From the NCBI RefSeq assembly GCF_044324785.1, contig NZ_CP172127.1: DNA of 64,000 nt; one strand, 5' to 3'. Below, one piece after another: positions 23,657 to 24,311 of this stretch. The translations under genes and the position numbers were made by a program. The notes beneath the pieces are model-generated. The model ran no database searches. It saw only the letters and a list, made by a program, of their open reading frames with translations, and was not told the origin of the DNA. How positions within the stretch are numbered: the stretch's first letter is position 1; each line of letters starts with the position of its first letter. This stretch comes from Escherichia coli (GTDB lineage: Bacteria > Pseudomonadota > Gammaproteobacteria > Enterobacterales > Enterobacteriaceae).

Positions 23657-23923
23657 ATGGACATTAACAACAAAGCCCGCATTCATTGGGCATGCCGCCG
23701 TGGTATGCGCGAACTCGATATTTCAATCATGCCGTTTTTCGAACATGAGTACGACAGCTTAAGCGATGACGAAAAACGCATCTTTATTCGTCTGCTGGAA
23801 TGTGACGATCCCGATCTGTTTAACTGGCTGATGAACCACGGTAAACCGGCCGATGCAGAACTGGAAATGATGGTCCGACTCATCCAGACACGGAACCGGG
23901 AACGTGGTCCTGTGGCAATCTGA
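23657..23923 (+). CDS. sdhE: FAD assembly factor SdhE (also CptB antitoxin), 88 aa
   Basis: Full [36 protein letters not shown]; overlaps ygfX by 20 nt. Confidence 0.9.
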
Positions 23924-24311
23924 TTTGCGCGTCTCCTGGCGCGCACAGTGGCTTTCCTTGCTGATTCATGGGCTGGTTGCCGCTGTTATTTTACTCATGC
24001 CCTGGCCGCTCAGTTACACCCCGTTATGGATGGTGTTACTTTCGCTGGTGGTGTTTGATTGCGTTCGCAGCCAGCGGCGTATTAATGCTCGCCAGGGGGA
24101 AATTCGTCTGTTGATGGACGGGCGTTTGCGTTGGCAAGGGCAGGAGTGGAGCATCGTCAAAGCGCCGTGGATGATTAAGAGCGGCATGATGCTGCGTTTA
24201 CGTTCTGATGGCGGTAAACGGCAACATTTATGGCTGGCAGCCGACAGCATGGACGAAGCCGAATGGCGGGATTTACGGCGGATTTTGTTGCAACAAGAGA
24301 CGCAAAGATAA
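23904..24311 (+). CDS. ygfX: inner-membrane toxin CptA (YgfX), 135 aa
   Basis: Full ORF with two hydrophobic helices; 20-nt overlap with sdhE. Confidence 0.85.

Follow-up and report, generated by a model that had tools for sequence, protein, structure and literature searches.

The closest described relative of the locus discussed here is the sdhE-ygfX operon of E. coli K-12, also named ygfY-ygfX and cptB-cptA. It is the same locus: gene order, overlap and neighbours match, and there is no difference of substance. The first gene encodes a member of the SdhE/SDHAF2/Sdh5 family of flavinylation factors (PF03937). When ygfY (sdhE) is deleted in E. coli the cells are viable, their SDH activity is lost, their metabolome resembles that of sdhB and sdhC mutants, and on succinate they hardly grow. 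Homologues of SdhE are reported from alpha-, beta- and gamma-proteobacteria as well as eukaryotes.

The same pair has been presented as a type IV toxin-antitoxin (TA) system under the names CptA and CptB. That report (Masuda 2012), as cited in later papers, describes growth arrest, binding to FtsZ and MreB, and rescue by YgfY in E. coli. A study from 2020 claims a CptBA-like TA system in Acinetobacter baumannii. Work on other genera gave different results. In Serratia a physical interaction of SdhE with YgfX was reported and the TA phenotype was not reproduced; co-transcription of sdhE and ygfX and its control by FlhDC/RsmA have also been reported, in Serratia only. In Shewanella a ygfY deletion was obtained, and deletion of ygfX does not rescue it. 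The Shewanella study further found overexpression of YgfX to be harmless, even in E. coli, and saw no interaction of YgfX with FtsZ or MreB, nor with YgfY in a two-hybrid assay.

If the pair is to be compared with other type IV TA systems, the obvious candidate is CbtA/CbeA (YeeV/YeeU). Both are small two-gene cassettes, and FtsZ and MreB are the claimed targets of both "toxins". CbtA/CbeA resides in cryptic prophages, is present in multiple copies and varies from strain to strain. In contrast, sdhE-ygfX is a single-copy, syntenic core locus that is essentially absent from mobile elements, and YgfX is a membrane protein without sequence relation to CbtA.

An initial annotation of the locus in the window (the whole 64,000-nucleotide stretch of E. 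coli DNA analysed here) considered it a TA-like module that had been co-opted into flavoenzyme assembly. We think it probable that the explanation is a different one: a chromosomal housekeeping operon in which YgfX, coupled to SdhE through the overlap, is a membrane partner or modulator of a flavinylation factor older than YgfX itself.

The genes, their products and their neighbours

In the window, sdhE (ygfY, cptB) is an ATG-initiated ORF of 88 aa at positions 23657..23923 of the plus strand, and ygfX (cptA) is a GTG-initiated ORF of 135 aa at 23904..24311 of the same strand, encoding a small inner-membrane protein. They share the 20 nt from 23904 to 23923 in different frames (23657 mod 3 = 2, 23904 mod 3 = 0). 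The initial annotation had these coordinates exactly right, and the RefSeq/PGAP annotation of a 99.4%-identical E. coli has both CDSs, the 20-nt overlap included (sdhE 3258-3524, ygfX 3505-3912). The neighbours on that chromosome are trhA, ygfZ (divergent), fldB (convergent), xerD, dsbC and recJ.

The divergent intergenic region between ygfZ and sdhE (23415..23656, 242 bp) is the presumed site of the sdhE-ygfX promoter; a sigma-70 consensus scan of this gap found no promoter. A Shine-Dalgarno-like AGGAAG on the plus strand (23648..23653) lies 4-9 nt before the sdhE ATG, with an anti-SD duplex of -4.3 kcal/mol. At the other end of the operon, the 39-bp gap between the convergent stops of ygfX and fldB is filled by a hairpin, UGACGGC...GCCGUCA (24315..24344; -22.5 kcal/mol, z = -3.73), and none of 200 shuffles was as good. 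The terminator scan did not call this hairpin, and a canonical T-run is absent on the plus strand. It is a possible transcript-end or stabiliser element.

Two further observations concern the window rather than the operon. For positions 23400-24450, identity to E. coli genomes is only 95-99% in 5419 of 5425 cases and 99% or more in just five, with a few environmental isolates at 99.4%, a pattern suggesting that a somewhat divergent lineage of E. coli is the source of the window. Of the relatives listed with about 99% identity or better, soil, sediment or lake water was the source of four (VCSW7, VCSW5, SW4848), and the others came from dogs, a pig and a human. Elsewhere in the window, on the minus strand, Rfam models detect 6S RNA (ssrS, 9583-9766, 139.8 bits) and a Sib RNA (8784-8934, 136.5 bits), which is the sRNA antitoxin in an ibs/sib toxin-antitoxin locus of type I. 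The window thus does include a genuine locus of TA type, about 15 kb from sdhE-ygfX.

Pfam, NCBIfam and PDB matches bear out the identities that had been assigned to the two genes. SdhE matches Pfam Sdh5 (PF03937) with an E-value of 5e-26 (90.8 bits against a cut-off of 27) and, over residues 1-88, the NCBIfam equivalog NF008130 "FAD assembly factor SdhE" (198.4 bits against a cut-off of 120). Its sequence is the same, at 100% identity, as that of E. coli YgfY in PDB 1X6I and of the chains solved together with SdhA (6C12) and FrdA (6B58). Its likeness to the family consists of the full-length match and of the RGxxE motif at residues 15-19, R15-G16-M-R-E19, where R15, G16 and E19 are invariant in the SdhE alignment. 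Judged by these matches, sdhE codes for a small FAD assembly factor of the cytoplasm, which promotes the covalent attachment of flavin to SdhA and FrdA.

YgfX matches Pfam PF07254, Cpta_toxin, over residues 2-131 (169.1 bits against a gathering score of 27.3); no relative with a solved structure was found. The AlphaFold2 (AF2) model has a pLDDT of 94.8 and consists of helices at residues 12-31 and 36-62, strands between 65 and 112 and a helix at 118-134. Hydropathy maxima fall at residues 13-38 and 36-54. Model and hydropathy thus agree with the description of YgfX as a two-helix membrane protein: a transmembrane hairpin is predicted for residues 12-31 and 36-62, encoded at 23937..24089 of the plus strand, followed by a predicted cytoplasmic beta-sandwich with a C-terminal helix (residues 65-134, encoded at 24096..24305). 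Residues 2-8, before the hairpin, form a beta-strand in the model, also with high confidence. This N-terminal strand, which is encoded in the overlap, is predicted to complete the cytoplasmic beta-sandwich domain.

We tentatively describe the modelled fold of the cytoplasmic domain as PH-like. The relation to bacterial PH-like (bPH) membrane proteins is one of resemblance only, and the strand preceding the hairpin is an unusual feature of YgfX. None of the bPH Pfam families matched the YgfX sequence, even at E <= 10. A Foldseek search of YgfX against the PDB gave nothing significant, and the bPH structural scores were modest.

The YgfX family is small, with 133 clusters (at 50% identity) reaching E <= 1e-3 among 1.84 billion representatives. 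Its named homologues at 30-38% identity all belong to Enterobacterales: Pantoea, Mixta, Tatumella/Rosenbergiella, Plesiomonas, Ca. Symbiodolus and an unclassified Enterobacteriaceae bacterium. When both proteins of the same loci are compared with those of the window, SdhE has a median identity of 86% and a minimum of 66%, YgfX a median of 72% and a minimum of 27%. In Kluyvera genomosp. 3 YDC799 (CP022114.1, 3248-3700) two deletions of 1 nt each, both in runs of G, break ygfX when it is compared with that of Kluyvera genomosp. 1. These breaks are either homopolymer sequencing errors or a genuine pseudogene.

The overlap between the two reading frames

Within the 20 shared nucleotides one frame gives the SdhE tail R-G-P-V-A-I-stop and the +1 frame gives YgfX M-V-L-W-Q-S-D. 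How constant is this arrangement? We fetched 80 species-level loci with an SdhE profile, all from Enterobacterales, in genera ranging from Escherichia to Yersinia, Serratia, Dickeya, Erwinia, Photorhabdus and Hafnia; 79 of them were usable. In every usable locus (79/79) sdhE is followed by an ORF that is positive for the YgfX HMM, and the distance from a GTG to the end of sdhE is exactly 20 nt. In the window and in all 79 loci ygfX is thus directly downstream of sdhE; the one exception met outside this set is Ca. Symbiodolus.

Conservation was then followed site by site in 82 distinct junction sequences. The variable sites of the overlap are third positions of sdhE codons only, and the rest is almost invariant. 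Two four-fold-degenerate sites of sdhE are of special interest. Site +1, the T in the middle of the ygfX GTG, is invariant (82/82), and site +10, the G in the middle of the TGG for Trp4, is fixed in 81 of 82. The other third positions of sdhE inside the overlap show a consensus of 68-82%, and the flanking third positions 33-70%. The fixation of these two nominally degenerate sites shows that the ygfX frame is under selection of its own, apart from SdhE coding. This comparison of junction sequences shows both frames of the overlap to be under purifying selection. The N-terminal motif MxxWxxxLRxS (YgfX residues 1-11) is kept in 39 full-length homologues at 27-59% identity. Positions -4/-3 and -12/-10/-9 before the GTG are highly conserved too, yet they also encode SdhE residues. 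The invariant spacing of the GTG, the conservation in both frames and the N-terminal motif together indicate that the overlap is a conserved dual-coding segment and not a product of chance.

It could be argued that the overlap is an artefact of annotation and that ygfX starts only after the sdhE stop, at TTG 23925, with no dual coding at all. This TTG does exist in the window and is the sole in-frame alternative start. The GTG is universal among the loci, and the TTG is present in no more than 4 of about 83. Residues 1-7 of YgfX, which a TTG start would remove, are conserved, with Trp4 nearly invariant; the synonymous sdhE site within the GTG does not vary; and residues 2-8 are a confidently predicted strand. 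We regard such an artefact as extremely improbable and reject TTG 23925 in favour of a start at 23904.

Farther from E. coli the geometry is less uniform. The overlap is 26 nt in Pantoea dispersa and 20 nt in Plesiomonas. Among metagenome contigs with divergent YgfX, one has a 14-nt overlap with an ATG start and another a gap of 30 nt. In Vibrio cholerae the gene after sdhE is a 114-aa ORF that has no Pfam hit and matches the YgfX HMM weakly, at 13.6 bits. At this locus (3206-3655) the YgfX-like frame is open for 56 nt into sdhE. A candidate TTG start at 3209 would give the N-terminus MLRWW, which resembles the MxxW of YgfX, and with the called ATG at 3311 part of the first membrane helix would be lost.

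Metagenomes also contain SdhE-YgfX fusion proteins of 166-217 aa. Several of them fit single-base frameshifts from the sdhE into the ygfX frame, and others fit deletions. Programmed frameshifting was considered and rejected, as the fused ORFs are singletons with junctions at differing positions. Most likely these fusions are assembly or sequencing errors or sporadic indels.

Distribution of the pair and the toxin-antitoxin question

The pair is present in 5425 of 5426 complete E. coli genomes, on the chromosome and with a median of one copy. A published survey, in which every sequence type had CptA_toxin at 80% or more, agrees with this core status. The synteny of ygfZ with sdhE-ygfX holds in Pantoea, in Plesiomonas and in metagenome contigs, and ygfZ is divergently adjacent in every locus for which the upstream flank is available. 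Two further loci are a 2.8-kb contig, with no ygfZ in its 600 bp of flank, and one with an uncharacterised upstream gene. Only 12 of 72,556 plasmid records match the pair, and many of these are chromosome-sized or several hundred kb long. Just two phage records match it, a 691-kb Salmonella genome scaffold and a 1,540-bp fragment.

Each gene can also be found without the other beside it. The SdhE-profile search for loci returned Enterobacterales only, and the loci of Neisseria and Vibrio were reached via PDB-derived fragments. In Neisseria sdhE is the fifth gene of sdhC-sdhD-sdhA-sdhB-sdhE-gltA-sucA, and there is no ygfX there. The pairing of sdhE with an overlapping gene for a membrane protein is a gammaproteobacterial trait, unlike the situation in Neisseria, where sdhE is part of the sdh operon. 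The reverse case is Ca. Symbiodolus clandestinus (CP152425.1, 1950-3444), an insect endosymbiont with a 1.5-Mb genome and a TCA cycle reported to be incomplete. It has an intact ygfX of 147 aa, with a 7-residue N-terminal extension, 82 bp from a divergent ygfZ and followed downstream by nadB, rpoE and rseA. No sdhE was found within 3 kb on either side of this ygfX (hmmsearch --max).

The downstream neighbourhood deserves a remark of its own. In Plesiomonas, Ca. Symbiodolus and Vibrio, sdhE-ygfX (or ygfX alone) is convergent with nadB, and rpoE-rseA come next. NadB, L-aspartate oxidase, is itself a flavoprotein and shares its Pfam domains, FAD_binding_2 and Succ_DH_flav_C, with SdhA. The place of nadB is taken in E. 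coli by the flavodoxin gene fldB. Genes for flavoproteins recur beside that of the flavinylation factor.

Could the pair nevertheless be a genuine type IV TA system, with YgfX (CptA) inhibiting polymerisation of FtsZ and MreB, SdhE (CptB) counteracting it, the overlap ensuring that the antitoxin is made first, and flavinylation as a second function of SdhE? Naming YgfX a CptA-type toxin is certainly founded on a publication: there are TA claims for E. coli (Masuda 2012) and for A. baumannii, and the Pfam family carries the name Cpta_toxin. The layout is compatible as well, since the small upstream partner comes first in a compact bicistron with an overlapping junction. This layout, considered typical of TA pairs in the initial annotation, is common to many ordinary operons and does not discriminate. 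The other hallmarks of TA systems point in the opposite direction. Their distribution is patchy, strain-variable, often multi-copy and associated with mobile elements, whereas sdhE-ygfX is core, single-copy and syntenic. Searches with PADLOC and PHROGs gave no hits, that is, no match to a defence or phage family. The genes of a TA pair are inseparable, yet the supposed antitoxin occurs without the toxin in the sdh operon of Neisseria (and its homologues reportedly extend to eukaryotes), and the supposed toxin is kept in a reduced endosymbiont genome with no antitoxin gene within 3 kb. An antitoxin should not be dispensable while its toxin gene is intact, but E. coli cells deleted for ygfY are reported to survive, with the phenotype of SDH loss. 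Finally, the TA phenotype failed to reproduce in Serratia and in Shewanella. We therefore consider a genuine TA system quite unlikely. What is left of the TA-like module is a published yet contested claim and a bicistronic layout; distribution, mobility and separability speak against it. The genomic comparison favours a housekeeping operon over a TA module, and the changes in growth and morphology reported when YgfX is overexpressed in E. coli are most readily taken as an outcome of the overexpression itself, not as a sign of an addiction module.

A different objection accepts that YgfX is no toxin and questions its connection with SdhE. The function of YgfX might not involve SdhE at all, the operon link being historical or regulatory; it might, for example, be tied to ygfZ (Fe-S/folate) or to some other client of the cytoplasmic domain. 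The endosymbiont hints at such an SdhE-independent role, as it has kept ygfZ and ygfX side by side, without sdhE within 3 kb and with a TCA cycle reportedly incomplete, although this absence of sdhE applies to the 3-kb flanks and not to the whole genome. The constancy of ygfZ as divergent neighbour fits this idea, and so does the negative two-hybrid result from Shewanella. An AF2 model of SdhE and YgfX fused through a linker, SdhE-(GGGGS)6-YgfX, built from a paired alignment of 26 species, also showed no confident docking (pTM 0.49, with a low-confidence SdhE N-terminus); the model is limited to a 1:1 complex, and YgfX is reportedly multimeric. Opposed to this are the physical interaction reported in Serratia and the strict overlap with sdhE throughout the order, which argues for co-production and not for coincidence. 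On balance a YgfX function that bypasses SdhE seems unlikely to us.

A probable membrane partner for an ancient flavinylation factor

The explanation that we prefer, a housekeeping operon with YgfX as the partner or modulator of SdhE, can be outlined as follows. Ribosomes that finish sdhE would start ygfX at the GTG inside sdhE. Because this start codon is not ATG, is preceded by no more than weak SD-like sites (GGAA and GGGAA within sdhE, 23892..23902, plus strand; anti-SD duplex -4.3 kcal/mol) and is located inside the upstream ORF, translation of ygfX is probably coupled to that of sdhE. Judged from geometry alone, such translational coupling is plausible. In the predicted RNA fold near the start, a small hairpin presents the SD-like GGGAA in its loop. 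RNA structure at the ygfX start is not significant as a whole (z = -1.73), and no conserved coupling structure was found there.

If correct, coupling would tie the output of YgfX to that of SdhE, at a lower level; the stoichiometry of the two proteins we infer from the same geometry alone. At native levels YgfX would then be a membrane-bound partner or modulator of SdhE in the vicinity of the membrane-anchored SDH and FRD complexes. This is the most likely role, given the published interaction in Serratia. A growth-arresting toxin at native levels it probably is not.

The history of the pair would also differ from what had been suggested. Of the two proteins SdhE is the older and by far the more widespread, and at least one lineage has its gene in the sdh operon. 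For this reason a TA module "co-opted into flavoenzyme assembly" implies the order of events in reverse: it is YgfX that is narrowly distributed and fast-evolving. The ancient flavinylation factor SdhE would have gained YgfX as a lineage-restricted membrane partner.

A more specific and more speculative suggestion can be made as well. YgfX may be a membrane-anchored PH-like adaptor, with the overlap and the GTG acting as a hard-wired coupler that fixes YgfX at a sub-stoichiometric ratio to SdhE. It might recruit or gate SdhE during assembly of SDH and FRD, and might possibly serve an SdhE-independent client in addition. In this detailed form we hold the proposal only tentatively and would not be surprised to see it fail.

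Much of what concerns this locus is already known: the genes and their co-transcription have been published, and so have the TA claim and the dispute about it. Modestly new are the invariance of the 20-nt overlap across an order with its signature at synonymous sites, the tentative PH-like fold with a strand encoded within sdhE, and the ygfX of Ca. Symbiodolus without a nearby sdhE. Their importance lies mainly in how the family is to be read. Labels in Pfam and IMG such as "Cpta_toxin" and "antitoxin CptB" spread the TA call onto a core operon for the assembly of respiratory enzymes, and TA surveys thereby count YgfX as a highly prevalent toxin. The case for regarding the label as misleading is sharpened by an overlap that is invariant across Enterobacterales and has selection on both frames, by sdhE within the sdh operon of Neisseria and by an endosymbiont that keeps ygfX with no sdhE nearby.
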